Shown here: positions 9,666 through 60,920 of the stretch, in pieces | Layout: each line of letters begins with the position of its first letter | How positions within the stretch are numbered: position 1 is the first letter of the stretch | Assembly (NCBI GenBank): GCA_018303655.1 | Contig: JAGVXT010000022.1 | Location: forward strand, 2,633-66,632 | Length of the DNA: 64,000 bases | Source of the DNA: Candidatus Woesearchaeota archaeon | Lineage (GTDB): Archaea; Nanobdellota; Nanobdellia; Woesearchaeales; GW2011-AR4 | Direction: 5' to 3' | Notes under the pieces: generated by a model | What the model was told of the DNA's origin: nothing | What the model saw: only the letters and a program-made list of their open reading frames with translations | Database searches by the model: none | Program-made: the position numbers and the translations under genes

Positions 9666-9675
9666 AATATTAAAT

Positions 9676-30726: not shown

Positions 30727-31284
30727 ATGATTGGCTTTATAGACTTTATCAGAAAAAAGCACCATTATGGAAGGTACAAGATAGTTAAAAGCCTGATAAA
30801 AAACAAGAGCAAAAACCTGCTGGACATAGGATGCGGGGCGCCTGCAAAATGCATGAAGGACGGAAGCTTTTTAAGATACCTTGGGTACGGGCAGGGGATA
30901 GACATCGAGCCAAGAAAAATAGAATTCAAGTTCAAATTGGGGAGCATAACAGACATACCTCATAAAGACAGGCAATTTAATGTTGTTACTGCAATAGAGG
31001 TTATAGAGCATATTGATAATCCAATGCCTGCGCTAAAGGAGATTCACAGGGTTTTAAAGGACAAGGGAACTTTTGTAATGACTACCCCGAACAACAACTT
31101 ATTTTTCAAAACATTTTGGTGGCTTTGGGAAAAAACATTCGGGCAGGAATGGCACTCCACGCACCTGACAACATACAAGAAAAATGAATGGCTCTCTCTT
31201 ATTAAAAAGAGCGGCTGCTTCAATATAAAAAAAGTAATAGATTACTGGCACATAAACACAATTATTGAGATGGAAAAAGCCTAA
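30727..31284 (+). CDS. Class I SAM-dependent methyltransferase
   Basis: LLDIGCGAP (motif I), VVTAIEVIEHI and GTFVMTTPN. Confidence 0.7.
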   Translation: MIGFIDFIRKKHHYGRYKIVKSLIKNKSKNLLDIGCGAPAKCMKDGSFLRYLGYGQGIDIEPRKIEFKFKLGSITDIPHKDRQFNVVTAIEVIEHIDNPMPALKEIHRVLKDKGTFVMTTPNNNLFFKTFWWLWEKTFGQEWHSTHLTTYKKNEWLSLIKKSGCFNIKKVIDYWHINTIIEMEKA

Positions 31285-33691: not shown

Positions 33692-36235
33692 ATGAAAATA
33701 AAAATTTTGCAGATACTGGCAATAATATATTTTTTATTGATTTTTTTAATACTGAAAGCACACAGCATTTACCCTCTTATTTTTCTTATTGCAGCGTTGC
33801 TCATAGATAACTTCACAAAAATAAGAAACGGGATAAAAAATCTCTTTTATGTGACTGCGGCACTGTCCGTTTTTCCAAGCGTATTGGGCATTTTTTTGCT
33901 TTACCTGCCTTTTTGCGTGTTTGGGGCTTTGCTGTCAAAAAGAAGCTTTCTCAGAAATTATATATTTGCATTTGCCCTTTCATTCATACCGGTAAACATC
34001 ATCTATTTCGTAACAACCTACTTTTCAGTGCCATTAAGCTATCCTGTCATATTCCTTATTTTTTATTCCATTCCAATTGTCGGAATTATTCTGCTGAGAA
34101 CAAAGGCATTTGATTATATTGAGGTAGAAAACAGCGAATGCATCTGCATATTTATAGTGCTTTTTTTCACGGGCATAATAGCTTCGGGCATAATTGACGA
34201 TAAAAGCCTTTTCATGGCCAATGGCGTAAGGATTTTCACAAGAGTCCAGATTGCTGTTGAAGGGCTAAACAACAATGGATTGGTTCCGATATACAACCCA
34301 GGAATTGCAATGGGAGAGGCAACTTACCTGTGGAATGCGCCGTCATTCAAGGTTCATGCAGCCATAAATGATTATCTGCTCCAGCCCAAGTCGCACATAC
34401 ATTTTTTTAACTCATTGTCATTCTTTATTCTGCTTCTTTCCACCCTGTCTTTAAGCATATTATTCCGGTCAATAATAAATCAGGAAGAAACATATTCAAA
34501 TATGCTGATGGTTTCATCAGTTGCAGTCCTGACCGGGCTCAATTTCTATTTTTTGCAGATGCTTGAGAGCTTTAAGGCAAATTATCTTTATCCGATGGCG
34601 TACCTTTTTTTAAGCATAATACTTGACAATCCCAAGAAGTACAATGACTATCTGATCCTGATGTATTTTTCAGCGCTGTTCATCATCATTCACCTTCCCT
34701 ATGGCAGCGGGGTGCTCGTGATTGGGGCATGCCTATTTTTAATTACTAAAATTTATTATTTAAAAGACAAATCAGAGTTGCTTCATTTTTTCAATTGGGC
34801 AGTCAAAAATAAACTTATTATTACGATTACAATTGGCGTCATCTTATTATTTCCGATTTTCTACCTGTCGTCTGGGATTATTTACAAGGAATTTATTTAC
34901 CAGGAATTTGACACTACTTTGGGCCAGAAGATAACTATTGGCTCTGTAATATCTGAAAGCGCTAATTTTTTCAAGGGGTTTTATGGCAGGTCTAAAGAAT
35001 TTTTTTCAATAAAATATCCTGATGTCAACAGGATAGATGACCATAAAATAGGCTTTTTCCTCTCAGTTTTTGGGCTCTTATCCTTTTTTCTGCTGTTTGC
35101 ATTTTATAAGCTGGAACGGGCCGGAAAATTCAGGATATTTGCATTGGCATTTCTGCTGAACTTATTTTTATCCTCCTTGTTTTACAACAGGCTTAGCATA
35201 CTGCTTGGCGGGTTTTTCAGAACAACTCTTCCGTACCTTTTGATATTGATGGGTGCTTCGATCCTGGCATTTACATACCTGTTTAAAAATAAGCACATCA
35301 AGTATTTTTTGATTATTGCAATATTTATTGCCTTTATCCACACAATTCCGTATGCAAAGCAAAACATAAACAATATCCACAAGGAATATTTTGCAGGCGG
35401 GGACGTGTATAGGGAAGAAATTGAATTCATAAAAAAACTGCCTGCGGATGGAAGGATACTGACCTATGGGCTGTTCAACAATGCAGTTGATTTTGGAGGA
35501 AACTATCTCACAAAGGGATATTTTTCAAGGAATGAGCGATACGAGCTTGTTCTCGTCAGGACTCCTTTTGAGAAGGTTCACGGCCAGAATTCATTTGGAG
35601 ACGCGGAAATTATTCTAAACAAATCAGGCACTGAATTATCAAATTACCTGATAATAGGGGGATACAAATACTTATTCATTAATGCCTGCCATCCCATAGG
35701 AAACTACGTTGTTTCAGTACTTTACCCGAATTTTACATACCCAATATACCAAAATGGCTGCCTGCTGTTTTTAATTGTTAACAACACAAATTACATAGAA
35801 AAGGCGGAATTGGCAAAAAATGCTCCTGATGGAATATACAAGCAAAAAGACGGGTACAAATACATCACTCTAAGCACATACTACAATTTTGACAGAAACT
35901 TAAATTTCAGGGAAACTCCAAAAAAGCCGGAGGCGTTAAAGTTCCAGAGGCCATCGCCCACAGAAATCCAGATATCTGGAAATTTCGAAAAAGACGATTT
36001 TGTCGTGTTCAAGGAGCAGTACTTTGCCAGATGGAAGGCTTACATGAACAATAAGGAAGTTCCTGTGATGACAACTGCACAGGAAATGGTATTGATCAAA
36101 ACAGACAAAGGAAATAATATCCTGCTGAAATATATGGTTCTTCCAAAAGAAAAAATATTTGGCGTATTGTCACTTATCGCCCATCTGGGTTTGATTATTC
36201 TTTTTATTTATTTATTAAGGCAATCTATTTTGTGA
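33692..36235 (+). CDS. Large polytopic membrane protein, putative GT-C glycosyltransferase with YfhO-like C-terminus
   Basis: 847 aa with more than 14 TM segments. C-terminal YFARWKAYMNNKEVPVMTTAQEMVLIKTDKG plus a final TM mirrors the tail of 31293-33602. Confidence 0.45.
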   Translation: MKIKILQILAIIYFLLIFLILKAHSIYPLIFLIAALLIDNFTKIRNGIKNLFYVTAALSVFPSVLGIFLLYLPFCVFGALLSKRSFLRNYIFAFALSFIPVNIIYFVTTYFSVPLSYPVIFLIFYSIPIVGIILLRTKAFDYIEVENSECICIFIVLFFTGIIASGIIDDKSLFMANGVRIFTRVQIAVEGLNNNGLVPIYNPGIAMGEATYLWNAPSFKVHAAINDYLLQPKSHIHFFNSLSFFILLLSTLSLSILFRSIINQEETYSNMLMVSSVAVLTGLNFYFLQMLESFKANYLYPMAYLFLSIILDNPKKYNDYLILMYFSALFIIIHLPYGSGVLVIGACLFLITKIYYLKDKSELLHFFNWAVKNKLIITITIGVILLFPIFYLSSGIIYKEFIYQEFDTTLGQKITIGSVISESANFFKGFYGRSKEFFSIKYPDVNRIDDHKIGFFLSVFGLLSFFLLFAFYKLERAGKFRIFALAFLLNLFLSSLFYNRLSILLGGFFRTTLPYLLILMGASILAFTYLFKNKHIKYFLIIAIFIAFIHTIPYAKQNINNIHKEYFAGGDVYREEIEFIKKLPADGRILTYGLFNNAVDFGGNYLTKGYFSRNERYELVLVRTPFEKVHGQNSFGDAEIILNKSGTELSNYLIIGGYKYLFINACHPIGNYVVSVLYPNFTYPIYQNGCLLFLIVNNTNYIEKAELAKNAPDGIYKQKDGYKYITLSTYYNFDRNLNFRETPKKPEALKFQRPSPTEIQISGNFEKDDFVVFKEQYFARWKAYMNNKEVPVMTTAQEMVLIKTDKGNNILLKYMVLPKEKIFGVLSLIAHLGLIILFIYLLRQSIL

Positions 36236-36899
36236 ACCTGTCTCTTATAATCCGCCAGGTTATTATCAAGCCGTCCCTGTAGCGTATCTTTGACCTTCCC
36301 CTTCTTTTATCTCCATGCCGGTCATTATAGGGAATTATCACCTCTTTTATTTTACACCCATTTTTTAGTGCAGCAGTTATTGTCTGCACAGTTGAATCGC
36401 ATCCGGTTGCTGTGATTTTGCCGACAAACCTGCCTATCTTCATGAGCTTCATGCCTGAATTCACATCGGTAATATTGCCTCCGTACAGCAGCCTAACTAA
36501 AAATGTGTGGAACATGTTAGGCAGCCTGTTTAGGCGCCTTATATCTCTCATCATTCTTCCCGCATTTACAAGCTCATAGCCTTGTTTTGCAAATCCTGCC
36601 AGTGTTTTGATATAGCTTATGGGGTATGTCCTGTCGCAGTCAATAACAATAAGATGCGTATGGCCAAGTTTCTTCGCATTGGCTAATGACTCTATTATGC
36701 CGCTTCCATACCCTGGCTTTTTTCTTGAAAAAACCTTTACGCCCATGGATCTTGCAATCTTGCCGGTTCCATCAGTTGAATGCTCGTCGCTTACAATAAT
36801 CCCGTAATTGCAGCGCTTCCTGATGTTCCCAATCATGAACCTTATATTCTCTTTTTCATTTTTGGTTGGCAATTCTATGCAGAAGCTGTATTTCGTCAT
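36225..36899 (-). CDS. Family 2 glycosyltransferase (polyprenol-phosphate sugar synthase-like)
   Basis: FCIELPTKNEKENI, VSDEHSTDGTG and VIDCDRTYP (DxD). Confidence 0.7.
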   Translation of the reverse strand: MTKYSFCIELPTKNEKENIRFMIGNIRKRCNYGIIVSDEHSTDGTGKIARSMGVKVFSRKKPGYGSGIIESLANAKKLGHTHLIVIDCDRTYPISYIKTLAGFAKQGYELVNAGRMMRDIRRLNRLPNMFHTFLVRLLYGGNITDVNSGMKLMKIGRFVGKITATGCDSTVQTITAALKNGCKIKEVIIPYNDRHGDKRRGRSKIRYRDGLIITWRIIRDRFTK

Positions 36900-36956
36900 T
36901 GTAATTTTACTGCAAAAACAAAAAATTATAAAAACCTATCTGTTTGCTGACCAGCA

Positions 36957-37916
36957 ATGAAGAATGCCCTAATCACAGGCGCCACCGGATTTATAGGCGC
37001 GAATCTGGCAAGGGAATTAGCCAGCAGGAAGTTTAATGTTAATGTTTTAACACGGCACACTTCAAATTTATGGAGGCTTTCTGACATTAAGGATAAAATT
37101 AGAGCGCATAATGCTGATATTTTGGATGCTGACAAGCTGTCTGATGTTGTGCACGGCATCAAGCCTGATTATATATTCCACCTTGCCGCATACGGCGCTT
37201 ACCCGCGCATTGAAACTGACAAAAAAGCTATTCTTGAGACTAACATGATTGGCACGTATAACCTGCTTAAAGCTACCCTGGATATTCCGTACAGATGCTT
37301 CATAAATACCGGAAGCTCGTCTGAATACGGCACAAAAAACAAGGCAATGAAAGAGTCCGATGCCCCGGAGCCAAATACATTTTATGGCGCAGCCAAAGCA
37401 GCTGCAACAATGCTCTGCCAGAACTTTGCAAGGCAATACAAAAAGCCAATTATAACATTAAGGCCCTTTTCTGCTTATGGCTATTATGAAGAGCCATTTA
37501 GGTTAATACCTGATGTGATAATCAAATGCATCAACCAAAAAGACGTTCACTTGACAAGCGGCGGGCAGAAGCGGGATTTTGTTTTCATTGAAGACGTGAT
37601 TGATGCATACATGAAAGCGATTGAAAGGCCATCATCCGGGCTTGTGCTGAATGTAGGCTCCGGCTCTGATGTTTCTGTCAAGGAAGTTGCCAGCCTAATT
37701 CATAGGTTAATTAAATCAAAAAATAAGCTGCTCTTTGGCAAAAAGAGAAAAGAGCAATTCGAAACTGACATTTGCTGGAAAGCAGACACAGCAGCGATTA
37801 AAAAAGCGCTCAACTGGAAGGCTGAAACAAGCTTAATTTCAGGCTTAAAGAAGACAATCGAATGGTTCAGTCAGAATATGGAGCTTTATGGGAAAAAAAA
37901 GCAAGGAAATAATTAG
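36957..37916 (+). CDS. NAD-dependent sugar epimerase/reductase (extended SDR)
   Basis: ALITGATGFIGANLAREL, GSSSEYG and YGAAKAAA (YxxxK). Convergent with rfbH. Confidence 0.75.
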   Translation: MKNALITGATGFIGANLARELASRKFNVNVLTRHTSNLWRLSDIKDKIRAHNADILDADKLSDVVHGIKPDYIFHLAAYGAYPRIETDKKAILETNMIGTYNLLKATLDIPYRCFINTGSSSEYGTKNKAMKESDAPEPNTFYGAAKAAATMLCQNFARQYKKPIITLRPFSAYGYYEEPFRLIPDVIIKCINQKDVHLTSGGQKRDFVFIEDVIDAYMKAIERPSSGLVLNVGSGSDVSVKEVASLIHRLIKSKNKLLFGKKRKEQFETDICWKADTAAIKKALNWKAETSLISGLKKTIEWFSQNMELYGKKKQGNN

Positions 37917-39238
37917 CCATATTTCCGGAAAAATTCGTCAAAAGATTCCAGCATGAACTTTAATTTCTCCTGCGTTATTCCAGGATACACGCCGACAAAA
38001 AATGTATCGCGCATGACCTTGTCGGTGTTGGCAAGAGAGCCCCTGATTTCTTTGTCTATGTCGATATAAGCCGGTTGCTTCAGTATATTTCCTGCAAACA
38101 CCATCCTGGTTTCAATTTTCCTTGATTCCAGAAATGAGGTGATGTCCTGCCTGGTAAATCCACAATCATCCTTCAAGGTTATTGTGAACGCAAACCATGA
38201 CGGGTTTGCTTTGTTGTGCCATATGGGAAGAATTATCTTGTCTTCATATTTCTTTAGGTGGCTGTATATTGCTTTGAAATTGTCCCTTCTTTTTTTCACA
38301 AATTCCGGAAGCTTCTTCAGCTGCTCAATGCCTATTGCAGCCTGGAGATCAAGAACTTTTAGATTGTATCCTATCTCAGAATAGATGTATTTGTGGTCAT
38401 AGCCTTCAGGCAAATCTCCCAGATTCCATCCAAACCTTTTGTTGCATGTGTTTGAGAGTCCGGGCAAACACCAGCAATCCCTGCCCCATTCCCTGATTGA
38501 TTTCAAAATCTTGGCAGTCATTCCGTCTTGGGTTAAAACAGCGCCTCCTTCCCCCATTGTAATATGATGCGCAGGGTAAAAGCTTACAGTGCCAACATCT
38601 CCAAAAGTTCCGACATTTTTATTGCCAAAAGTTCCGCCGATTGCATCGCAGGTGTCCTCCATCAGCACAAGGCTATGATCTTCCTTCAAGTCCATCAAAA
38701 GGTCCATGTTGTTTGGGTTGCCTAAAGTATGGGGAATAACCATTGCTTTGATGTCGCTGCTAACAGCCTCTTTCAGAGCCTCTTCGCTTATGTTGCAAGT
38801 TCCTACATCAATGTCCACAAACACGGGCTTTAGGCTGTTCTGTATTATCGGCGCTAATGTTGTAGGGAAGGTAGTTGCTGGTGTTATCACCTTGTCACCG
38901 TTTTTTAATGGGCTGGGCATTCTTTTTGATTTAAGGGCAGTAACCGCAATCAAATTTGCGGATGAGCCTGAATTGGCAAGCACGGAAAACCTTGAGCCAA
39001 GCGCGGCAGCAAACTCCCTTTCAAATTTCACTCCTTTATCGCCATATGTAAGTGTAAAGTCAAGAAGATTGTCCACTGCCTCAATCATCTCATGCTCGTC
39101 AAAAACCCTTCCGGCATAATTTAGCTTGTCAATGCCAGGCTTGAATTCCTTATTTTCAAATTTAACATGATAAAGCTTTTTTACAAGCTCTTTTATCCTG
39201 TCCCTTATGGCATCTTCTGGCTCGTTCAATTTTTGCAC
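37913..39238 (-). CDS. rfbH: CDP-6-deoxy-D-xylo-4-hexulose-3-dehydrase (E1, RfbH/DdhC-like, PMP-dependent)
   Basis: DegT/DnrJ/EryC1 fold of about 440 aa with the long RfbH N-terminus. SFYPAHHITMGEGG carries His in place of the aminotransferase Lys, as in E1/ColD dehydrases. Confidence 0.8.
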   Translation of the reverse strand: MQKLNEPEDAIRDRIKELVKKLYHVKFENKEFKPGIDKLNYAGRVFDEHEMIEAVDNLLDFTLTYGDKGVKFEREFAAALGSRFSVLANSGSSANLIAVTALKSKRMPSPLKNGDKVITPATTFPTTLAPIIQNSLKPVFVDIDVGTCNISEEALKEAVSSDIKAMVIPHTLGNPNNMDLLMDLKEDHSLVLMEDTCDAIGGTFGNKNVGTFGDVGTVSFYPAHHITMGEGGAVLTQDGMTAKILKSIREWGRDCWCLPGLSNTCNKRFGWNLGDLPEGYDHKYIYSEIGYNLKVLDLQAAIGIEQLKKLPEFVKKRRDNFKAIYSHLKKYEDKIILPIWHNKANPSWFAFTITLKDDCGFTRQDITSFLESRKIETRMVFAGNILKQPAYIDIDKEIRGSLANTDKVMRDTFFVGVYPGITQEKLKFMLESFDEFFRKYG

Positions 39239-39311
39239 CCCGCTTTAAATTAATTATGCAACCAAATATTCGCCGAATATATTTAAATGTTTTCACCAAT
39301 AAACACAGCTT

Positions 39312-40298
39312 CTAATTATGCTTAAAGAACTCCTTATACCAGCTGATGGTCTTTTTCAGGCCATCATCAATCTGGGTGCCTGCTTTCCATCCAAGCATTT
39401 TGCTGGCTTTGCCACAATCCAGATACTGCTTCTTTATCTCATTTTTTGCCTCTGCAAGAATCTTCGGCTTCATCTTTGAATCGGAAATTTTAAGTATCTT
39501 ATTGACCAGCTCAATCACGCTCATCGGATTTTCAGGGCCAAAATTAAAGGCATTTCCCTGTATCTCTTTTCTATCCAGCGCTTCTGCCAGCGTCAAAAAT
39601 GCATCAACAGTGTCCTCGACATAAAAATAGTCCCTTATGTAGGTTCCGTCGCTTCTTATTACGGGGTTTTCATTTTGCAGTATGGATTTTATTGTGCCGG
39701 GCACAATCCTGCTGAAATTCAAATCTCCTCCCCCATATATGTTGCCGCATCTTGCTATCCCTATAGGCATTTTATAAGTATGCGCATATGCCTGTGCAAT
39801 CAGATCGCAGCAGCTTTTTGAGACATCATACGGATGCAGCCCTGACAAAGGGGAACAATCTTCCTTGTATGGCAGGTTTTTCTGATCGCCATATGCCTTA
39901 TCGCTTGAAGATATAACAATTCTTTTTGCCAATATATTATTTTGCAATGCCTCCAGTAAATTCCATGTTCCCCTGATGTTAGCCTCAAAAGTTGGCAAAG
40001 GGCTTCTGTTGGCAGCCTGGACTATTGCCTGCGCAGCAAGGTGAAAGCAGGTGTCAATCTCGTACTCATTCAATGCCCTCTCAACTGTCCAATAATCTTC
40101 TAAGCTTCCATGGACAATATTGACTTTTTTGATTAAACCCGAATGCTCCAGCTCTGATTTTGGCACATGGTCTCTTTTTAAAATTGTTACATTGGCATTG
40201 TCTTTAAGCAGCCTCTTCACAAGCCAGCTTCCCAATATGCCGGTTGCTCCTGTTACAAATACATTTTTGCCTTTCCAGTACCCAGAATTTTTTTCCAT
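39312..40298 (-). CDS. rfbG: CDP-glucose 4,6-dehydratase
   Basis: [26 protein letters not shown] and YDVSKSC. ATG 40298 (MEKNSGYW) is chosen. The ORF-track start at 40421 would overlap rfbF by 116 nt. Confidence 0.8.
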
Positions 40299-40305
40299 TG
40301 TAGCG

Positions 40306-41094
40306 CTAGCCTTTCCATACTTTCCATGGCGCTTCATTCTTCTGCCATAATTCATTAAGCATGTCAACCTGCTGCTGGATATCCATGCATTGCCAAAAGC
40401 CATTATGCATGTAGGCAACAAACTGCTTGTCTTTTGCCAGCATTTTCAAAGGCTTATTCTCAAGCATGCAGTCATTGTCCATTGTCAAATAATCAAATAT
40501 GTGCTTTTTGAAGATAAAATAGCCGCCGTCAATCCTGCTGCCATGCACAATGTCCCTTTTTGTAAAATCAACCACCATGCCGTTTTGCAGCTGAAGCACA
40601 CCGAATTTTGCCAATGGCGTAACAGCGGTGACCGTTGCTATTTTGCCATGCTTCTTGTGGAACATGGACAGCTTGCTTATGTCAACATCAGAAACCCCAT
40701 CTCCATAAGTCAAAAAGAAGCTGTCTTCATCAATATATTTCTCTATCTTCTTGACCCTTCCGCCTGTGCCCGTGTCCAGGCCGGTATCGGCAAAAGTGAT
40801 GCTCCACTCGTCAGGCTTTTTATTTGAGTGATATTTCACATTTTTTGTTTTTGTGTTGAATGTGACATCAGTCTGATACATATCCAAATTCAGGAAGAAA
40901 TCCTTTATCATCTGCCCTTTGTAGCCCAGGCACAGGACAAAATCTTTTACCCCGTAATGTGAATATATCTTCATTATATGCCACAAAATTGGCATCCCTC
41001 CAACCTCTATCAATGGCTTTGGCTTAAATTCAGTTTCATCCCTTAATCTGGTACCGCGGCCACCGCATAAAATTACAGCTTTCATAAACTTCAT
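40306..41094 (-). CDS. rfbF: Glucose-1-phosphate cytidylyltransferase
   Basis: [44 protein letters not shown] and GFWQCMD. RfbF/DdhA signature. Confidence 0.85.
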
Positions 41095-41192
41095 GACACC
41101 CCCTCGAACATCTTAATTGGCTGGATAACTTAGGCAATCTATTTAAATTTTTTCTATATGCCGGAACAGAAAATAATTCCAGCCAATCATCA

Positions 41193-42269
41193 TTAGAACG
41201 GCCCGCTAAAGCTTTCATCAGGAACATCCAGATGCTTTGGATCTTTTTTCCGTTCGGATTCAAGCAGCTTCTCAACTTCATTTGAAGGCTTGCCAAGCAT
41301 TTCACATACTTTTTGTATTATGTTTATATGCCTAGGATAATAATATCTTGCCAAAGCAGGCGTGGATGGCGTTGGAATGTCCGGCAAGGTAATTCTTTGC
41401 GGAGCAGCGTTCAAAAATTCAAATGCCTTTTCAGACACCCTTGTTATGATCTCTCCTGCAAAACCATTAGTATAATAGCCTGAGTCTATAGCGAGCAGCT
41501 TTCCTGTTTTTTTAATAGAATTTATAATCAACGTGTCATCAAGCGGCTTTAATGTCCTTAAGTCTATAACCTCGGCTGAAATCCCGTATTTTTCAAGAAC
41601 ATTTATGGCTTTTAGGGTTTCTGCAGTCATATAAGATGTAGAGACAATAGTCAAATCTTTGCCAGAAGAAACCATTTTGGCTTTGCCTATTGGAACAGCA
41701 TACAGCTCTTCCGGCACATGCCCCCAGGTGTTATACAGCCAGCGATGCTCAATAAATACAACAGGATTATTGTCCCTTATGCTGGAAATCAGCAGTCCTT
41801 TGGCATCATAAGGAGTAGCTGGCATCACAACCTTCAATCCCGGAATATGCGCGAAAATTGCCTGAAGATTCTGGGAATGCTGCGCACCCTGGCCCCATCC
41901 CATGCCTATTATAGCCCTGAAAACCAAAGGCACATTTGCTTTGCCCCCAAACATGTAATGCCATTTGGCAGCGTTGTTCACAATCTGGTCAAACGCCAGC
42001 AAAAGAAAATCAAGCCTTAAATGAACCATGATTGGCCGCATCCCCATTAATGCAGCGCCAATGCAAACCCCGCTCATGCCGTTTTCAGACAAAGGCATGT
42101 CCATGACCCTATTCCCGTATTTTTCTGCCAATCCTTTGGTTGTTCCAAAAACGGATTTGATGTCAGGCACCCCTTCTCCAATCACAAACACAGATGGATC
42201 ATCTTCCATACTCTGGTCTATCGCTTCCCTTATCGCTTCACCATACGTAATTTTACGCATATTTGGCAT
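41193..42269 (-). CDS. Thiamine-diphosphate-dependent 2-oxoacid dehydrogenase E1 component, beta subunit-like
   Basis: ITYGEAIREAI, FVIGEGV, DMPLSENGMSGVCIGAALMGMRPI and HSQN. Transketolase pyrimidine-binding plus C-terminal domain. Confidence 0.8.
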   Translation of the reverse strand: MPNMRKITYGEAIREAIDQSMEDDPSVFVIGEGVPDIKSVFGTTKGLAEKYGNRVMDMPLSENGMSGVCIGAALMGMRPIMVHLRLDFLLLAFDQIVNNAAKWHYMFGGKANVPLVFRAIIGMGWGQGAQHSQNLQAIFAHIPGLKVVMPATPYDAKGLLISSIRDNNPVVFIEHRWLYNTWGHVPEELYAVPIGKAKMVSSGKDLTIVSTSYMTAETLKAINVLEKYGISAEVIDLRTLKPLDDTLIINSIKKTGKLLAIDSGYYTNGFAGEIITRVSEKAFEFLNAAPQRITLPDIPTPSTPALARYYYPRHINIIQKVCEMLGKPSNEVEKLLESERKKDPKHLDVPDESFSGPF

Positions 42270-42287
42270 AGTTTTTCACATTAAATT

Positions 42288-43301
42288 TTATTCAGCATAA
42301 ACATGCTTTGAGAGGCTTTCTTTTTCAGGAAAAGGGCTGTTCTTTGCGAATTTCACGGCATTGTTTACCTTATCCAGTATTTCAAGCTCGATTTTTTCAA
42401 GCAAATCATTTCCTATTATTTTTTCTTTAATCATTTTTTCCTTAAGCATTTTTATAGGGTCTTTTTTTTTCCATTCAATGACCTCTTCTTCTGTCCTGTA
42501 ACCCAGATTAACATCATCATTGGGTCCGCAGTGCTCCAGCCACCTGTACGTCATGCATTCTATCAGCACAGGGCCTTTGCCGGATTTGATGTGCCTGAGC
42601 GCTTCTTTAGCTGCTTCGCATACTTTCAGTACATCATTGCCATCTGCTTGGCAAGCAAGAATATCATGCCCCTGGGCTATTTTGAATATTTCCCTTTGCG
42701 GCTGGCGGTCTTTCAAAGGGGTAAGGACAGAATAGAGATTATTCTCGCATATGAAAAGAACATTCAGCTTGTGCAATGAAGAAAAATTTACAGTCTCGCT
42801 GAAAACACCTTCTTCCACAGCAGAGTCGCCAAAGAAAGCAACTGAAACATTATTCTTATTTTGAAATTTGGAAGCCAATGCAGATCCTGCGGTAAGAGGT
42901 ATGGTGCCTCCAACAATAGGGGTGGCTCCTATAAAATTGGCAGAAAGGTCTATGAGGTGCATTGAGCCTCCCCTGCCTTTTGAGCATCCCTCGGCTTTTC
43001 CATAAAGTTCAGCAAGCATGCGGTTTATATCGCCGCCTTTGGCAATATAATGGCTGTGCGCCCGATGATTGGAAAATACAGTATCTTCTTTAGATAAATT
43101 CATGCAAACTCCGACAGCAACAGCTTCCTGGCCAATGGATAAGTGAACAGGGCATCTCATCTCTCTTTCCGAGTATAATTCAGCAATCTTTTCTTCAACA
43201 CGCCTGATCAACAGCATATTTTTATAAGAATCTATAAGAAAACCAGCATTTGCTCCTTTGCCTGAAATGTCCCCATGAACCACTCCCATTCTGGGCTTCA
43301 A
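42288..43301 (-). CDS. Thiamine-diphosphate-dependent 2-oxoacid dehydrogenase E1 component, alpha subunit-like
   Basis: MLLIRRVEEKI, GQEAVAVG, GGSMH and FFGDSAVEEGVFSETVNFSSLHKLNVLFICENNLYS (the GDG-x-N TPP motif). Confidence 0.8.
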   Translation of the reverse strand: MKPRMGVVHGDISGKGANAGFLIDSYKNMLLIRRVEEKIAELYSEREMRCPVHLSIGQEAVAVGVCMNLSKEDTVFSNHRAHSHYIAKGGDINRMLAELYGKAEGCSKGRGGSMHLIDLSANFIGATPIVGGTIPLTAGSALASKFQNKNNVSVAFFGDSAVEEGVFSETVNFSSLHKLNVLFICENNLYSVLTPLKDRQPQREIFKIAQGHDILACQADGNDVLKVCEAAKEALRHIKSGKGPVLIECMTYRWLEHCGPNDDVNLGYRTEEEVIEWKKKDPIKMLKEKMIKEKIIGNDLLEKIELEILDKVNNAVKFAKNSPFPEKESLSKHVYAE

Positions 43302-43325
43302 AAATAACCACGAATTTATAAAACT

Positions 43326-44024
43326 TTAGTCAAAAAGCCTGTATTTCAGCAAATAAAAGGCAGCCTTTATCCCATCAATCCATGTAATTTTTTTGCCTTG
43401 CTCAAACTTTCTTCCAACAAAATTTATGGGAACCTCATGGATTTTGCAGCCTTTCTTAAGTATTTTTGCCGTGATTTCAGGCTCAAAATCAAAGCGGTTA
43501 GCCTTTAAATTTATGCCCTTAATCACTTCTCTTGTGAATACCTTGTAGCAGGTTTCCATGTCAGTTATCTTTGTACCATATAACAGGTTTGTCAGCAATG
43601 TAAGAAACAAATTGCCAATATAGTGCAGCTTGTACATGCTTTTTGCATTTTTTCTTATGGATTCCAGTCTTGAGCCATAAACAACCTTTGCCTTGTTTTC
43701 CATAATCGGCTTTAATAATTTTGAATAGTCATTGGGATCGTACTCCAAGTCAGCATCCTGGATTATTATCAAATCTCCAGTTGAGTTTTTTATGCCTGTT
43801 CTTATAGCGGCGCCTTTCCCCATATTTTTTTTATGATAGAAGACTTTTAGTGATTTATTTTCCAAATTTTTCAGAATATTCCCCGTATTGTCTGTTGAGA
43901 AGTCATCAACTACAATTATTTCTTTCTTAATATTCCATATTCTTGCCCTTTTTACCCTGCCTATGATTTTTTTTATAGTCTTTTCTTCATTGTAAACAGG
44001 GATTATAACCGAAAGCTTTGCCAT
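43326..44024 (-). CDS. Family 2 glycosyltransferase
   Basis: MAKLSVIIPVYNEEKTI, VVDDFSTDNT and IQDADLEYDP. ATG 44024 is chosen because 44078 would overlap hldC. Confidence 0.8.
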   Translation of the reverse strand: MAKLSVIIPVYNEEKTIKKIIGRVKRARIWNIKKEIIVVDDFSTDNTGNILKNLENKSLKVFYHKKNMGKGAAIRTGIKNSTGDLIIIQDADLEYDPNDYSKLLKPIMENKAKVVYGSRLESIRKNAKSMYKLHYIGNLFLTLLTNLLYGTKITDMETCYKVFTREVIKGINLKANRFDFEPEITAKILKKGCKIHEVPINFVGRKFEQGKKITWIDGIKAAFYLLKYRLFD

Positions 44025-44055: not shown

Positions 44056-44547
44056 CTATTGATTTCTATAAGCGTCAAGAATCCTGCTTATCAGCCCTGT
44101 TGTGGAGTATCCTTTTTCCACTTTGGCGATTGCAATTTTTCCGTTATTTTTCTCTACAACACCTTTCTCAATAATCTGATGGATTTTATAATCCCCGGCT
44201 TTCACATGAAAATCAGGCTTTATCTTTTCCAGCCATTTTACAGGATCATTTTCATCAAAAAGGAAAACAAAATCAACGCTTTCCAATGCAGCCAGCACAA
44301 AAATTCTTGACTTTTCATCATTAATCGGCCTCTTGTCGCCTTTGTTTATCTTTACAGATTTGTCTGTGTTGACCCCAACAATTAAAAAATCCCCAAGCTT
44401 CTTTGCCTCCTCAAGATATTTAACATGCCCAAGATGGAGAATATCAAAAACGCCGTTTGTTGTCACAATTTTTTTATTTTGTTTTTTTAGTTTATTGACT
44501 ATGGGAATTAATTTTTTTAATGTGATGATTTTTTTATTGATTGTCAT
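44056..44547 (-). CDS. hldC: D-glycero-beta-D-manno-heptose 1-phosphate adenylyltransferase (RfaE domain II type)
   Basis: KIVTTNGVFDILHLGHVKYLEEAKKLGDFLIVGVNTD. Cytidylyltransferase-fold HxGH motif at stand-alone size (163 aa). Confidence 0.8.
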   Translation of the reverse strand: MTINKKIITLKKLIPIVNKLKKQNKKIVTTNGVFDILHLGHVKYLEEAKKLGDFLIVGVNTDKSVKINKGDKRPINDEKSRIFVLAALESVDFVFLFDENDPVKWLEKIKPDFHVKAGDYKIHQIIEKGVVEKNNGKIAIAKVEKGYSTTGLISRILDAYRNQ

Positions 44548-45064
44548 TTTTAACTATCCATTTGGCAGCTTCCATCAAGTCCTTAGCTATGAAATCAGGC
44601 TTGGCCTCTTTTATTGTCTTTTTTCCGTCACCAGTCAATACAAGTATGGATTTGCAGTTCGCATTTTTTCCTAATTCAACATCGGCTTTTTTGTCCCCAA
44701 TGACAAAGGATTTCTTCAAATCTATCCTGAATTTTTTCTCTGCAACCTTTAAAAATTTTGTTTTTGGCTTCCTGCAGCTGCAGTTATCTTCCGGCTTGTG
44801 CGGGCAGTAATATGTTTTTTCTATTTTTATGTTGTGTTTTTTCAATTCAGCTAAAACTTCTTTATTATAATTGAAAAACTCCTTTAGTGTAAAAAAGCCC
44901 TTTCCTATGCCAGACTGATTTGTGACTATGAATATTTTAAAATTTCTTAATAGCTTCAGGCCTTTAACCGCATTTGGCAACAGCTTGAAATCCCCTATTT
45001 TGTGGGCATATCCAATGTCATGCGTGATTGTGCCGTCCCTGTCGATAAAAACAGCTGCTGTCAT
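44534..45064 (-). CDS. gmhB: D-glycero-D-manno-heptose 1,7-bisphosphate phosphatase
   Basis: AVFIDRDGTI, VTNQSGIGKG, CPHKPEDNCSCRKP (Zn loop) and GDKKAD. HAD-IIIA GmhB signature. Confidence 0.85.
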   Translation of the reverse strand: MTAAVFIDRDGTITHDIGYAHKIGDFKLLPNAVKGLKLLRNFKIFIVTNQSGIGKGFFTLKEFFNYNKEVLAELKKHNIKIEKTYYCPHKPEDNCSCRKPKTKFLKVAEKKFRIDLKKSFVIGDKKADVELGKNANCKSILVLTGDGKKTIKEAKPDFIAKDLMEAAKWIVKNDNQ

Positions 45065-46035
45065 AATTCCTCAATTCCCCTTTTGATTTCCTCAATGCTG
45101 ACAGAGGCGGTCCCTATTTTCCCGACTTTTATTCCGGCTGCAATGTTTGCTATTACTGCAGCCTCCTCAAGGCTTGCTCCTGATGCAAGCGCAAGCGCTA
45201 TCGCGGCAACAACAGTGTCGCCTGCGCCTATTAAGCTGTAAACTTCCTTGGCTTTTGCAGGAATATGCACAACCTTTCCGTCTTTCTCGAACAAAGACAT
45301 GCCTTTTTCCCCCCTTGTGATCAAAACATTTGAATTAAGGTATTTCATAAGCTTGGGGCCCATCTCCAATACAGCATCGTCGCTGCCATCCTCAATGCCT
45401 GTCATCTCGCTTGCTTCTGCATTATTTGGAGTAATCAAGGTAGCATTTGAGTAAAGATCCCTGTGCTTTGGCTTTGGATCTACTATCACAGGCTTGTTGC
45501 TGCTCCTTGCCATTTCAATAAGCCTGCCGCACACAGCTTGATTTATAACGCCCTTTGCATAGTCGGAAATAACCACAACATCCACATCTTTGATTGCATT
45601 TTCTAGAAATTTTACCATATCTTTTTCTATATTTTGATGGATATTATCTTTCTTTTCATAGTCAACCCTCAGCAGCTGCTGGCTTCTTCCGACAATTCTC
45701 ACTTTTTGAGTTGTTGGCTTGTCGGCGTCGATAATAATTCCATCTGTGTTGACGCCCATGCCCTTCAATTCCCTGATAAGAATATTTTTTGCTTCGTCAT
45801 TTCCCGCAATGCCTGCCATGTAAACTTTTCCGTTTAGAGCAGATGCATTGCTTGCAACATTGGAAGCGCCACCAGGCGCATATGTTTCTTTTGATACATT
45901 TACAACCTGAACAGGGGCTTCAGGGCTTATCCTTGAGACATCCCCCCAGATGTATTTGTCAAGCATGATGTCGCCTATTACGAGGATTTTTTTATTTTTA
46001 AAATTTTCCAGTATTTTTAACAGCCTTTGCTTCAT
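45061..46035 (-). CDS. hldA: D-glycero-D-manno-heptose 7-phosphate kinase (RfaE domain I type, PfkB family)
   Basis: ILVIGDIMLDKYIWGDVSRISPEAPVQVVNV, GGASNVASN and GAGDTVVA. Confidence 0.8.
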   Translation of the reverse strand: MKQRLLKILENFKNKKILVIGDIMLDKYIWGDVSRISPEAPVQVVNVSKETYAPGGASNVASNASALNGKVYMAGIAGNDEAKNILIRELKGMGVNTDGIIIDADKPTTQKVRIVGRSQQLLRVDYEKKDNIHQNIEKDMVKFLENAIKDVDVVVISDYAKGVINQAVCGRLIEMARSSNKPVIVDPKPKHRDLYSNATLITPNNAEASEMTGIEDGSDDAVLEMGPKLMKYLNSNVLITRGEKGMSLFEKDGKVVHIPAKAKEVYSLIGAGDTVVAAIALALASGASLEEAAVIANIAAGIKVGKIGTASVSIEEIKRGIEEL

Positions 46036-46036
46036 T

Positions 46037-46948
46037 TCAAATCCCCTCCATTACCGCCCTGTGCAGTGTTGGAACTGTTTTTTCATGCTTTTCAATGATT
46101 ATAAATCCTTTTCCCCCCAATGAAGTCGGCCTCTGGACAACATTCTCCCTTGGCCTGTAATGGTCTATCATGTCAAAGTTTGCCGCTGTTATGTTTTCAA
46201 CTTTATAGCCAAGATTTCTTGCGATTGTCAAAGCTTTTAGAAAAACTTCCGGCAGTATTACAGCGCAGCCTATGTTTAATATGACACCGCCTTCCATCCT
46301 GCTTACGCTTTCTGCAAAAATTTTAAAATCTTTATATGAAGTCTTTCCGACAGCAGCGCCGTCGCAGCTGGGATGCTGGTGTATAATGTCAGTTCCGATT
46401 GCAACATGCACAGTAACTGGAATATTTAAGTTGTATGCATTATATAAAATGCTGCATTCCTTGTTTGGAAGATTTAAATCGCTTATTTTCTTTCCAATGG
46501 AATAACCCAAGCCATAATTATTTTCAGCGCCTTCCTTGATTGCCTCATTTAGCATTCTGCCGGTTTCCTCTATCATTCCAAATGTGCCGTATTCAATTGT
46601 CTGCTCAACATATTCTGAAGTTTCTCCAATCAAAGCCAATTCAAAATCATGGATTGGGCCTGCGCCGTTCATTGCAATGTGCTTTATAACCCCTTTTTTC
46701 ATCAGGTCAATTATCAAAAGGCTCATGCCTACCTTGATAACATGGGCTCCCATCATCAGGATAATTTGCTTTTTGTTTTTGTAAGCATTGATTATATGAT
46801 TTGACAATTCATTGAACTCTTTTGTATTTATCAAAACTTTAGAATTTTCAGGCTTGATCAAATCATTCAATTTTACCTTATTTTTCCTTTTTTTTATGGA
46901 GATTGTTTTTATCCTGCTGAAGTCAAGCATTTTTATCACTTTTTCCAT
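46037..46948 (-). CDS. Conserved-looking protein of unknown function embedded in the heptose operon
   Basis: 303 aa and soluble, with MMGAHVIKVGMS, NGAGPIHDFELALIG and HVAIGTDIIHQHP. Only a vague resemblance to the deoxyhypusine-synthase-like Rossmann fold by eye. Ends 1 nt before the hldA start. Confidence 0.4.
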   Translation of the reverse strand: MEKVIKMLDFSRIKTISIKKRKNKVKLNDLIKPENSKVLINTKEFNELSNHIINAYKNKKQIILMMGAHVIKVGMSLLIIDLMKKGVIKHIAMNGAGPIHDFELALIGETSEYVEQTIEYGTFGMIEETGRMLNEAIKEGAENNYGLGYSIGKKISDLNLPNKECSILYNAYNLNIPVTVHVAIGTDIIHQHPSCDGAAVGKTSYKDFKIFAESVSRMEGGVILNIGCAVILPEVFLKALTIARNLGYKVENITAANFDMIDHYRPRENVVQRPTSLGGKGFIIIEKHEKTVPTLHRAVMEGI

Positions 46949-47187
46949 TTTTGTAATATAAGCATAAAAATAATTATGGCGATAAATATAATCGCGGTTA
47001 TTATTATCAACAATTTTTTTCTTAATAATAGAGATGTTATCAGCAATAATATATCAATGATTAGAATCAAATCTAGGTAAAAAATAGTTTTACCCTTTTC
47101 GTACGAGTCGACTAAAAATCCAACTTCTTTCCAAACCATTTTATTAAAAAATCTATCTTTTTTATTTTCCAAACAATTCTTTTTCAA
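46936..47187 (-). CDS. Small membrane protein
   Basis: 83 aa with two hydrophobic segments. Overlaps both neighbours in the same-strand gene string. Confidence 0.35.
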   Translation of the reverse strand: MKKNCLENKKDRFFNKMVWKEVGFLVDSYEKGKTIFYLDLILIIDILLLITSLLLRKKLLIIITAIIFIAIIIFMLILQKWKK

Positions 47188-47728
47188 CTAATTCACAAAT
47201 AATATGTCCTGCTAGCATGTAACCCTCCTGAATTCTTGGAGTATCATTGGAGGGTACATTTAAACAAATATCTACTTTATTTTTCAATACTCCCCCACTT
47301 TTGCCTGTAAATGCAACAGTGATTCCTCCTAACTCTTTGGCTTTCTCTATTCCTTTAATTACATTCTTTGAATTACCACTTGTGCTAATTCCTATTACAA
47401 TGTCTCCTTTTTTTACAAATCCCTCAACCTGTTTTGCAAACACATCTTCATAATCATAATCATTTCCTATAGCAGTTAAGCTTACATTATCAGTCAAAGC
47501 TATTGCAGGAAGAGATTTTCTGTTGAAATAATAACGAGATACAAACTCAGTTGCTAGATGCATACTATCAGAACAGCTGCCGCCATTACCAAATAAAATA
47601 ACTTTGCCATCATGTTTATAGCAATGTATAATCGTTTCCGCTATTTTTTGTACCGTTTCTTTGCTCCCTGATAGTCTCTCTATTGCTTCTTTATGTTCAT
47701 TTATTCTTTTTAGTATTAAATCTTCCAT
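47162..47728 (-). CDS. gmhA: Phosphoheptose (sedoheptulose-7-phosphate) isomerase
   Basis: SIS domain with GKVILFGNGGSCSDSMHLATEFVSRY and GISTSGNS. MEDLILKRINEH at 47728 matches the usual GmhA N-terminus. Confidence 0.85.
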   Translation of the reverse strand: MEDLILKRINEHKEAIERLSGSKETVQKIAETIIHCYKHDGKVILFGNGGSCSDSMHLATEFVSRYYFNRKSLPAIALTDNVSLTAIGNDYDYEDVFAKQVEGFVKKGDIVIGISTSGNSKNVIKGIEKAKELGGITVAFTGKSGGVLKNKVDICLNVPSNDTPRIQEGYMLAGHIICELVEKELFGK

Positions 47729-48254
47729 TTTTAATGTCCTCCAATATTTTATCAACATTGGCTTTTGGCTTTATGATTATAAACTTTAAGTTATTCTTCC
47801 TATACACTTCTAATTTTCCTTTCCAATCTTCTTCTGTTTCCTTACGCATGCCATCTACTTCTATAAAAACATCATTAACTAAGAAGTCTGCATATTTTGT
47901 GGAATTTGGTATGTGTGGATGTATGATGTGTCTCAAGTTATGCTCTGTTAATTTCTCGTCAACCCACAATTCCAGAGACGAATAACACAAGTGACCATCT
48001 GAAACGGTAGAATAAGTTCCGAAGCCATAAGTTCCGCTGTTTACCCACGGTTCCATATATTTTCTTGCTAATTCAGGATGATTTTTAATCCACTCTTTCT
48101 TCTTTTGACTTATTCTTTGTCTAATTGTTTTTAGGCTTACCGTAGCCGACCTTTGAGTTTCAAAGGGAAAAACATAATGAGCGAAAAAATCACATTCTAG
48201 GTGATTAGTAAGTTTAAATACTTTGTCCGCAGATGTCCAGTGGTATGCTAACAT
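47697..48254 (-). CDS. PD-(D/E)xK (Vsr/DUF559-like) nuclease-fold protein
   Basis: SSLELWVDEKL...YADFLVNDVFIEVDGM fits the S-x-x-E ... D-F ... (I/V)E(V)DG core of DUF559/Vsr-like endonucleases. Its 3' end overlaps the gmhA start by 32 nt. Confidence 0.4.
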   Translation of the reverse strand: MLAYHWTSADKVFKLTNHLECDFFAHYVFPFETQRSATVSLKTIRQRISQKKKEWIKNHPELARKYMEPWVNSGTYGFGTYSTVSDGHLCYSSLELWVDEKLTEHNLRHIIHPHIPNSTKYADFLVNDVFIEVDGMRKETEEDWKGKLEVYRKNNLKFIIIKPKANVDKILEDIKNGRFNTKKNK

Positions 48255-51273: not shown

Positions 51274-51276
51274 TTT

Positions 51277-51714
51277 TTAGAATAATACCTGCACAATGCC
51301 CGCTCCTTTAAACACAAGCTCTTTTCCGTTCCTATACATTTCAATATTAATCTCTATTAAATTAGTTGATTTGATATTATTAACAACTTTGCCGACAATC
51401 TTAATTTTGTCGCCGATAAAAAAGGGTTTTATGAACTTGGCGTCCTGCTTGATGCAAATTGAGCTTCCTCCTGGCAGATATTCCCCGTACAGCCTCGAGA
51501 GAAAGCCGGTCAGCATGAACCCGTAGCCAATCTTCCTTTTAAATTTGGTTTTTGAGCAGAATTTGTCATCGCAATGAATCGGGCTGAAATCTCCGAATAA
51601 TTTTGCGAAAGAAGCATGGCTTTCTTCATTGATTTCAACTTCAAACTGGGCTTTATCGCCAATTTTAATATCTGAAAAAGATCTGGCTTGCCTGTGGCTT
51701 GCTGCTCTATCCAT
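51277..51714 (-). CDS. MaoC-like hotdog-fold (de)hydratase
   Basis: FAKLFGDFSPIHCDDKF and IGYGFMLTGFLSRLYG. ATG 51714 lies 1 nt after the ACP stop. Confidence 0.65.
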   Translation of the reverse strand: MDRAASHRQARSFSDIKIGDKAQFEVEINEESHASFAKLFGDFSPIHCDDKFCSKTKFKRKIGYGFMLTGFLSRLYGEYLPGGSSICIKQDAKFIKPFFIGDKIKIVGKVVNNIKSTNLIEINIEMYRNGKELVFKGAGIVQVLF

Positions 51715-51715
51715 T

Positions 51716-51934: not shown

Positions 51935-51938
51935 AATG

Positions 51939-53750: not shown

Positions 53751-53752
53751 AG

Positions 53753-60788: not shown

Positions 60789-60920
60789 GATTTTGGGGAA
60801 TATTTATTGTTTATATAGCTAATGCCAAGCATGTCCAAATTATAGCTGATTTTGTACCTACTATCCAATAACGAAAACTTTAAAAAGGGGTATATACTAC
60901 CAGTAAGCGTTGGGGTCATA

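Follow-up and report, generated by a model that had tools for sequence, protein, structure and literature searches.

What does a thiamine diphosphate (ThDP)-dependent enzyme of the E1alpha/E1beta type do among nucleotide-sugar genes when no E2 or E3 component of a 2-oxoacid dehydrogenase complex accompanies it? The question is raised by a 64,000-nucleotide stretch of contig JAGVXT010000022.1, here called the window, in which six tightly spaced genes on the minus strand (37913-44024) encode a family 2 glycosyltransferase (GT2), E1alpha, E1beta, the glucose-1-phosphate cytidylyltransferase RfbF, a short-chain dehydrogenase/reductase (SDR) resembling cytidine diphosphate (CDP)-glucose 4,6-dehydratase, and RfbH (Table 1). 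A preliminary description, made from the letters of the window, had drawn this string, and all six genes lie where it placed them according to open reading frames (ORFs), Pfam and NCBIfam, with boundaries identical to those in the gene calls of the source contig, which is 90 kb long and stems from a JGI metagenome. That description did not include a same-strand continuation further upstream, to position 47758, which carries a full ADP-heptose set. On the basis of sequence comparison we favor, with a probability of roughly 0.6, the reading that E1alpha/E1beta is a stand-alone ThDP carboligase working inside a CDP-sugar pathway, where it would probably add a two-carbon branch.

The pair carries the sequence features of a ThDP enzyme: GDS-X26-NN in E1alpha and PLSEN in E1beta, read from the translations, which we take to be the ThDP-binding motif and the region of the cofactor-activating glutamate, respectively. 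It had been called unlikely to be a metabolic pyruvate dehydrogenase (PDH), with placement against PDH, branched-chain 2-oxoacid dehydrogenase (BCKDH) and acetoin E1 sequences proposed as a check, and both the search for partner subunits and the phylogeny agree with that judgment. With seven E2 and six E3 probes taken from seven annotated plasmid operons (acetoin-type, PDH and BCKDH), tblastn found no match in the 64-kb window, and the same probes placed E2 or E3 near none of 168 loci holding an E1alpha relative, whereas E2 lies within two genes of E1beta in nine of nine reference operons. Neighbor-joining trees of E1alpha (311 columns, 50 bootstrap replicates) split the E2-less clade from nine E2-linked PDH, acetoin and BCKDH sequences in 49 of 50 replicates. 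The E1alpha of the window is 43-85% identical to clade members, 40-41% to acetoin-type, 38% to alphaproteobacterial PDH and 25% to BCKDH sequences. The lack of E2 and E3 across the 168 loci, together with the separate clade, assigns the pair to a large stand-alone E1 clade that spans bacteria and archaea; of the 111 related loci that span 8 kb or more, 107 have E1beta adjoining E1alpha. Against this background we find it scarcely credible that E1alpha/E1beta serves as E1 in a catabolic dehydrogenase complex for pyruvate, acetoin or branched-chain 2-oxoacids, with E2 and E3 encoded at some other place. E1beta does pass NF006667 (344.6 bits against 321), which is a subfamily-level model only, the closest solved structure to E1alpha is that of human PDH E1alpha (213 bits), and identity to acetoin-type E1alpha reaches 40-41%; yet E1alpha stays under the cut-off of PDH_E1_alph_y, the PDH E1alpha equivalog model (340.1 bits; cut-off 393.85), and the genes around the pair form a glycan island.

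The extent of the clade was sampled in several ways. In a set with one genome per species, the 600 candidate stretches listed yielded at least 594 confirmed relatives of the query. A metagenome scan with E1alpha as sole query returned only relatives of 43-59% identity, which were used for context statistics; as a route to close relatives it was dropped, the patterns being too generic and none of the relatives close. AviB-like references were sought among plasmids as well, and this yielded canonical E2-linked operons, which we kept as references, and one Streptomyces pair, with none from a known branched-sugar cluster. The Streptomyces pair (L178, positions 9980-12026 of Streptomyces griseofuscus pSGRIFU1; L numbers denote compared loci) has no E2 or E3 annotated nearby and adjoins a condensation-domain protein and gamma-butyrolactone regulators in a nonribosomal peptide synthetase region. 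Since it falls inside the E2-less clade, the clade reaches into actinomycete secondary metabolism too.

The genes that follow the pair would encode the opening steps of a CDP-3,6-dideoxyhexose pathway. RfbF is 46.5% identical to its Salmonella namesake. RfbH matches the Yersinia E1 dehydrase 3BCX over the full length (441 bits, compared with 231 bits to ColD), the segment SFYPAHHITMGEGG, which holds the diagnostic histidine motif, is identical in 3BCX, and a direct count shows the [2Fe-2S] cysteines intact as C-X57-C-X1-C-X7-C; the earlier assignment of an E1-type RfbH on the strength of the histidine is thus confirmed, with the full cysteine motif in addition. Among solved structures, the SDR between them matches two CDP-glucose 4,6-dehydratases best, 1WVG and 1RKX, with whose SDK motif its own aligns. 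Identity between its DPANN orthologs and Salmonella RfbG is low, at about 29-32%.

Close relatives of RfbH (68-94% identity) are all of DPANN type and share one orthologous module, consisting of RfbF, RfbG, RfbH, the convergent SDR, a 224-aa GT2, a protein of about 840 aa, a YfhO-like protein, a 185-aa methyltransferase and a second GT2. The RfbF-RfbG-RfbH-SDR-GT2-membrane-protein core occurs in eight further DPANN contigs, and every module contig with a visible neighborhood also contains a two-subunit thiamine enzyme, either E1alpha/E1beta (four contigs) or a split transketolase (four sister lineages). The E1 pair is found in two positions. It lies upstream of RfbF in the window and in L181 (E1a-E1b-RfbF-RfbG-RfbH-SDR(-)-GT2), and it lies between the convergent SDR and the GT2 in L196 (RfbF-RfbG-RfbH-SDR(-)-E1a-E1b) and in the 11.7-kb P0004 contig (RfbH-SDR(-)-E1a-E1b-GT2), neither of which has heptose genes between the module genes. 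The E1alpha of the window is 83-91% identical to that of L082, L181 and L196. In L182/183, L184, L186/187 and L189, whose RfbH proteins are 68-83% identical to ours, the split transketolase is divergently adjacent to RfbF, and no heptose genes occur within 10 kb in L182 or L184. The preliminary description had proposed an archaeal CDP-linked, C-branched 3,6-dideoxyhexose, a proposal for which this conserved association of RfbF, RfbG and RfbH with a thiamine enzyme, in two gene orders, offers comparative-genomic support.

Similar associations appear outside this module. On Desulfobaculum and Methylovirgula plasmids, two of the five bacterial rfbH plasmid loci inspected, rfbH is followed directly by a split transketolase, with an SDR and GT2/GtrA present in addition at the Methylovirgula locus. 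In the Nanoarchaeia contig L190 (JAQTST010000001.1), at positions 7709-11320, a HAD hydrolase gene separates RfbH from a single-chain ThDP enzyme that resembles YerE (543 aa; its scores fall far short of the acetolactate synthase cut-offs). Three radical SAM genes and one for a methyltransferase come before this row, which may represent the classical YerE arrangement in archaeal form. In the metagenome contigs L158 and L175, E1beta is followed directly by an RfbF homolog (41-42% identity) and an SDR. Three unrelated classes of thiamine enzyme thus occur at, or one gene from, RfbF or RfbH, and the same three (E1-type, transketolase and YerE-type) have been tied to keto-sugar branching (PMC12247030). 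We regard this recurrence as the strongest argument that the E1 pair of the window acts on a CDP-keto-sugar.

The remaining module members are conserved to varying degrees. Orthologs of the convergent SDR (56-89% identical) stand tail to tail with RfbH in L181, L182, L186, L189 and L196 and nearby in L184; across the seven loci in which its position can be read it is an orthologous member of the module, in keeping with the earlier suggestion that it may finish the sugar. It has generic SDR matches only, with no specific match among solved structures, and an attempt to assign a reductase subtype with NCBIfam, solved structures and Salmonella probes failed. The 224-aa GT2 has orthologs of 71-90% identity in all related modules, its best NCBIfam models being AglJ and dolichyl-phosphate hexose transferase, both under cut-off. 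The 847-aa protein matches no Pfam or NCBIfam family and has orthologs (47-91%) in L181, L182, L184, L186 and L189, while L182, L184 and L186 also carry orthologs of the YfhO-like protein (43-52%) and of the class I methyltransferase (63-72%). Orthologs of the 232-aa GT2 (59-65%) occur in related DPANN loci at variable positions.

A reductase of the AscD/RfbI type that could supply RfbH with electrons was not detected. The Salmonella E3 reductase probe was unmatched in the window, no real ORF there has a ferredoxin motif, and Pfam scans of the other large ORFs of the window gave no such reductase, so that the reported lack of a DdhD/AscD-type E3 reductase stands for the window. Neither an AscD/RfbI homolog nor a ferredoxin was found at any locus pairing RfbH with E1alpha/E1beta or a split transketolase, and no E3 reductase lies near the split transketolases of the four DPANN lineages, Desulfobaculum or Methylovirgula. 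SpnQ, a homolog of RfbH, uses general ferredoxin or flavodoxin reductases, and for this reason the missing AscD/RfbI is not disqualifying. The three bacterial rfbH loci that lack a split transketolase divide between Salmonella, which has the E3 reductase and no thiamine enzyme, and Sulfitobacter and Streptomyces, which have neither within 8 kb; in the latter two a non-dedicated reductase evidently suffices for RfbH. One Woesearchaeota contig (L186, 19419-20021) encodes, directly after RfbG, a 200-aa protein with Fer4_15 and pterin-binding DUF4346 domains, a candidate electron carrier for RfbH that has no homolog in the window.

The same pattern could be read in another way, with the thiamine enzyme itself (E1alpha/E1beta, split transketolase or YerE-like) as the electron source of RfbH: oxidation of the ThDP-enamine would feed the [2Fe-2S] cluster, and a 2-oxoacid or ketose would drive 3-deoxygenation with no branch formed. 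The shared lack of reductase and ferredoxin fits this idea, as do the full Fe-S motif kept in RfbH and the absence of a thiamine enzyme from Salmonella, the one examined locus with E3; moreover, an E1-type relative, Ao:DCPIP oxidoreductase, reduces a dye (PMC12247030). We nevertheless hold it to be very unlikely, for neither E1alpha/E1beta nor transketolase has an electron-transfer cofactor, ddhD and yerE occur together in Yersinia-type clusters (PMC4509608), and the Sulfitobacter and Streptomyces loci do without both E3 and a thiamine enzyme.

A number of observations weigh against a CDP-keto-sugar acceptor. The RfbG-like SDR is divergent, scoring 212.6 bits to CDP_4_6_dhtase, under the cut-off of 278. 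The DPANN split transketolases, at 281 and 205 bits for their two parts, come close to the 488-bit threshold of an ordinary transketolase model, and may have a housekeeping role. The related DPANN loci are kin and do not count as fully independent samples. In the window, heptose genes lie immediately upstream of the E1 pair on the same strand, and in the E1 clade at large RfbF and RfbH are rare company, with orthologs in 4 and 1 of 111 loci, respectively. Common neighbors in the same 111 loci are instead SDRs (98), HldE-II-like nucleotidyltransferases (77, or about 69%), HldE-I-like kinases (74, or 67%), SIS isomerases (45) and DegT aminotransferases (43). The nearest E1 relatives outside the trio to which the window's pair belongs, in the DPANN loci L083-L088, L002 and L004 (E1alpha 60-67% identical), have HldE-like genes and no RfbF, RfbG or RfbH. 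All of these loci carry E1a-E1b, a GT2 and a gene resembling cytidylyltransferases, and a PfkB kinase gene is close by. L083-L088 (66-67%) show the four genes in this order and, where the locus reaches far enough, a SIS gene as well.

This HldE-like company, together with the upstream heptose module, meant that the identity of the acceptor sugar had to be tested. Indeed, the clade's company led us at first to suspect that the E1 pair was a member of the heptose module, in which case it would branch or extend a heptose-derived nucleotide sugar supplied by the upstream GmhA, HldE and GmhB, and RfbF, RfbG, RfbH and the SDR would separately make an unbranched 3,6-dideoxyhexose. We dropped this idea after inspecting the close relatives of RfbH. 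In its favor stand the frequencies just given, the heptose genes directly upstream, and the DPANN loci with 60-67% identical E1alpha, in which an HldE-type set is the only one for sugar activation. However, the usual HldE and GmhA partners of the clade are strongly divergent paralogs (104-130 bits against cut-offs of 181-345), whereas the heptose genes of the window are canonical, and the string holds no spare heptose-specific oxidoreductase. The heptose genes of the window are probably a separate sugar supply, and the two GT9 heptosyltransferase-like enzymes of the window, which the ADP-heptose most likely feeds, account for it. Finally, the SDR and the GT2 of the RfbF-RfbG-RfbH module flank the E1 pair in both L196 and the P0004 contig, where heptose genes are missing, and L182 and L184 keep a thiamine enzyme beside RfbF where heptose genes are lacking. 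Taken together, the comparisons make a heptose-derived acceptor appear less likely than a CDP-keto-sugar, and we judge it unlikely overall.

Two further observations concern heptose genes. Within the upstream set, the GSU2086-family gene sits between gmhA and the hldE kinase gene, the position it has in Geobacter sulfurreducens; in a fitness screen of that species by transposon mutagenesis, the GSU2086 growth defect on electrodes resembled those of hldE and gmhA (PMC5585712). Elsewhere in the E1 clade, about 70% of the 111 loci, among them L089 (Azospirillum oryzae plasmid NZ_CP054615.1, 4774-17129), L005, L007, L043 and L059, show an HldE-associated bacterial cassette of SDRs, a fused HldE-like protein of about 510-540 aa with reversed domain order (nucleotidyltransferase, then PfkB kinase), a SIS isomerase, and E1alpha/E1beta with no E2 or E3 nearby. 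The cassette often adds one or two DegT aminotransferases and a radical SAM protein, several loci also have a split transketolase, and the whole looks like a pathway to a branched or extended higher sugar. Our literature search returned nothing specific on heptose together with thiamine enzymes, on GSU2086, or on transketolase together with rfbH/ddhC.

Even with a CDP-sugar as the context, the thiamine enzyme could serve another end: it might make an acyloin or acyl substituent, act on CDP-4-keto-6-deoxyglucose before or instead of RfbH, or attack another carbon. L158 and L175 have E1beta, RfbF and an SDR with no RfbH ortholog in view, known E1-type enzymes branch at C-3 or C-4 (PMC12247030), and an FkbH/acyl carrier protein (ACP)/MaoC block in the window suggests acyl decoration. 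We consider these variants improbable, since RfbH is orthologous in every DPANN module with a thiamine enzyme and its product is the sole acceptor with direct biochemical precedent.

Returning to a two-carbon transfer onto the RfbH product, sequence comparison establishes what RfbF and RfbH are, the cofactor motifs, the lack of E2, E3 and AscD, the clade of the pair and the conserved gene order. The remainder of the route we infer: which donor and acceptor are used, where the branch is placed, what the SDR does, and that delivery is lipid-linked. RfbF would form CDP-glucose, which the RfbG-like SDR would convert to CDP-4-keto-6-deoxyglucose; RfbH would then take off the 3-hydroxyl, with electrons from a non-dedicated reductase, to give CDP-4-keto-3,6-dideoxyglucose. 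E1alpha/E1beta would decarboxylate pyruvate and add the hydroxyethylidene-ThDP carbanion to the C-4 ketone, yielding a 4-C-acetyl tertiary alcohol, and the convergent SDR would reduce the branch carbonyl to a yersiniose-like 4-C-(1-hydroxyethyl)-3,6-dideoxyhexose. The 224-aa GT2 would transfer this sugar to dolichyl phosphate, from which the 847-aa and YfhO-like membrane proteins may pass it to a surface acceptor outside the cell.

The route draws on precedents that the preliminary description had named, YerE and AviB1/AviB2, both of which proved to be real: YerE adds a pyruvate-derived C2 unit to CDP-4-keto-3,6-dideoxyglucose, and AviB1/AviB2, like Pau11/Pau12 and KbDH-alpha/beta, are E1-type sugar-branching enzymes of antibiotic pathways (PMC4753412, PMC9306805, PMC12247030). 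The yersiniose A pathway of Yersinia pseudotuberculosis O:6 (DdhA-D, YerE, YerF) opens with a glucose-1-phosphate cytidylyltransferase and an E1-type 3-dehydrase, whose orthologs RfbF and RfbH exceed their NCBIfam equivalog cut-offs in the window, and with a CDP-glucose 4,6-dehydratase, the family that the divergent SDR fits best; it continues with the kind of ThDP-dependent C2 addition from pyruvate to a C-4 ketone that we predict here, and, as proposed for the window, is presumed to proceed through ketoreduction to a product that enters a surface glycan. YerE, however, is a single-chain flavoprotein of the decarboxylase family, unlike the two-subunit E1alpha/E1beta, and a YerE-like probe from L190 found no counterpart in the window; the Yersinia pathway has DdhD (E3), whereas the window is without DdhD, AscD or RfbI; and Yersinia delivers the sugar through an O-antigen polymerase pathway, whereas delivery in the archaeal host apparently relies on a small GT2 and GT-C-type membrane proteins. 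The pathway of the window would thus work like the yersiniose pathway without being a member of it, YerE and DdhD being absent.

In architecture and genomic setting the pair resembles the E1-type enzymes of the avilamycin, paulomycin, aldgamycin and kibdelomycin pathways (AviB1/AviB2, Pau11/Pau12, AlmDI/DII and KbDH-alpha/beta), which are likewise two-subunit and without E2 or E3; they use pyruvate as donor and a nucleotide keto-sugar as acceptor, and the branch ketone is later reduced or aminated. The antibiotic enzymes act on dTDP-sugars in Actinomycetota. The E1 pair likewise lies among genes for a nucleotide 4-keto-sugar, standing beside RfbF, RfbG and RfbH in the window, L181, L196 and the P0004 contig. 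The antibiotic enzymes serve secondary metabolites (PMC12247030), whereas the sugar here is CDP-linked and the genes lie in a cell-surface glycan island of a probable DPANN-type archaeon. The split-gene transketolases of miharamycin and amipurimycin, for which hydroxyacetyl branching has been proposed, have counterparts that take the place of E1alpha/E1beta in the DPANN sister lineages and on the two bacterial plasmids; the unit added by a transketolase would be glycolyl, whereas acetyl is expected from the E1-type enzyme. All 13 transketolase branching candidates of a 2025 review are from Streptomycetes and are uncharacterized in vitro (PMC12247030).

Two other systems share parts with the window. 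The abequose pathway of Salmonella (RfbF, RfbG, RfbH, RfbI, RfbJ) has RfbF and RfbH proteins 44.6-46.5% identical to those of the window, whose intervening SDR is RfbG-like, but it has the E3 reductase RfbI and the C-4 reductase RfbJ and no thiamine enzyme, where the window has an E1 pair and no RfbI. As in the three-component, lipid-linked glycosylation systems GtrA/GtrB/Gtr and CsbB/YfhO, a small GT2 of the polyprenyl-phosphate type stands beside YfhO-like and large polytopic membrane proteins, and the Methylovirgula counterpart carries GT2 and GtrA; in the window, by contrast, no flippase was identified, the carrier would be dolichyl phosphate, and the 847-aa protein matches no family.

The string forms part of a larger glycan island with an STT3/AglB oligosaccharyltransferase, two GT9 enzymes, PMT_2-type membrane proteins, other GT2 and GT4 enzymes, a sugar C-methyltransferase and the FkbH/ACP block. 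An archaeal origin, assumed in the preliminary description, is likely, the closest homologs coming from Woesearchaeota and Nanoarchaeota metagenome-assembled genomes and the window containing the STT3/AglB gene; the host is probably a DPANN-type archaeon. An Rfam scan found no rRNA or tRNA in the window. G+C content is 0.39-0.42 over the Rfb/E1 string (36001-44000), the maximum of the window, compared with 0.31-0.32 in 1-12000, which may reflect foreign origin or merely gene content. Heptosyltransferases and a canonical ADP-heptose pathway are features of the bacterial lipopolysaccharide type, here in a probable archaeon. The FkbH block, in which a 72-aa ORF is possibly a carrier protein, looks like carrier-protein-based acyl chemistry, unexpected in an archaeal glycan island. 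In a second deoxysugar-type set, the best model for the Gfo/Idh/MocA oxidoreductase is archaeal UDP-GlcNAc 3-dehydrogenase, under cut-off; because the set includes a C-methyltransferase, the island may make a second, C-methyl-branched sugar. Pfam gave no match for five large ORFs, of 787, 1389, 545, 585 and 321 aa (16448-22967, 26320-27957 and 60852-63643).

Table 1. Features of the window and, in the last row, the split transketolase genes of compared loci; scores are in bits
Feature	Position	Strand	Basis
ThDP subunit of E1alpha type, lacking an E2/E3 partner; would be the donor-activating half of a sugar C-branching enzyme	42288-43289	-	PF00676, E 5e-74
E1beta-type subunit, pyrimidine-binding and C-terminal domains	41193-42269	-	PF02779 (Transket_pyr) and PF02780 (Transketolase_C)
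RfbF, glucose-1-phosphate cytidylyltransferase	40306-41085	-	TIGR02623, 325.6 vs cut-off 300
RfbG-like CDP-glucose 4,6-dehydratase, divergent	39312-40295	-	best NCBIfam model CDP_4_6_dhtase
RfbH, E1-type CDP-4-keto-6-deoxyglucose 3-dehydrase (pyridoxamine phosphate, [2Fe-2S])	37913-39229	-	NF011936, 597 vs cut-off 423
Convergent extended SDR; proposed sugar-finishing reductase	36957-37916	+	PF01370
GT2, about 224 aa, dolichyl-phosphate hexose transferase-like; proposed lipid-phosphate loading	36225-36899	-	PF00535
Polytopic membrane protein, 847 aa; candidate transferase	33692-36235	+	conserved in module
YfhO-like membrane protein (GT-C type)	31293-33602	+	weak PF09586 YfhO match in precomputed gene calls
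Class I methyltransferase (185 aa)	30727-31284	+	Methyltransf_11/23/31 in gene calls
Second of the small GT2s, 232 aa; opens the string as originally drawn	43326-44024	-	PF00535, E 1e-37; best NCBIfam model AglJ
Upstream continuation of the string, canonical ADP-D-glycero-beta-D-manno-heptose genes	44056-47758	-	NCBIfam models
HldE domain II	44056-44547	-	rfaE_dom_II, 188.5 vs cut-off 181.5
GmhB	44534-45064	-	159 vs 178, just under cut-off
HldE domain I	45061-46035	-	rfaE_dom_I, 378.7 vs cut-off 345
GSU2086-family protein	46037-46948	-	NF052581, 423; weak deoxyhypusine-synthase-like similarity
78-aa ORF	between the GSU2086-family gene and GmhA	-	
GmhA	47162-47758	-	182 vs 209, just under cut-off
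STT3/AglB oligosaccharyltransferase (1052 aa)	56321-59479		
Two GT9 heptosyltransferase-like proteins	22969-23979, 54132-55286		
Three PMT_2-type proteins	10338-12065, 13139-14629, 24026-25666		
FkbH_N protein (603 aa), 72-aa ORF, MaoC dehydratase, Antibiotic_NAT-family protein, 4'-phosphopantetheinyl transferase	50380-54148	-	
Second deoxysugar-type set: short RmlD-like protein, GT2, Gfo/Idh/MocA oxidoreductase, sugar C-methyltransferase (Methyltransf_13/14), SDR	4594-9665		
Split transketolase genes	L182 6162-7921; L184 6067-7834; L186 15682-17465; L189 22-849; L192 10328-12126; L193 9355-11108		

What appears new here is the setting of the E1-type enzyme, which would work in a CDP-3,6-dideoxy pathway within the surface-glycan island of an archaeon and is interchangeable there with a split transketolase; the chemistry is known, and the enzyme class and the domain of life would differ. 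We count this setting as new because the 2025 review confines E1-type and transketolase-type branching mainly to specialized natural products, with the transketolase candidates restricted to Streptomycetes (PMC12247030). Neither C-branched sugars nor 3,6-dideoxyhexoses of archaea turned up in our literature search, and the pathway, if our reading is correct, would be the first for a C-branched 3,6-dideoxy sugar in this domain. E1-type sugar branching would likewise be extended beyond the actinomycete antibiotics, to CDP-sugars and to glycans of the cell surface. The three unrelated thiamine enzyme classes beside RfbH offer a natural panel for comparing ketone acceptance, an open question for biocatalysts (PMC12247030), and the wider E1 clade would add hundreds of uncharacterized candidate carboligases. 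For the organisms themselves, the predicted branched sugar would belong to DPANN cells, which are believed to make contact with their hosts through the cell surface.

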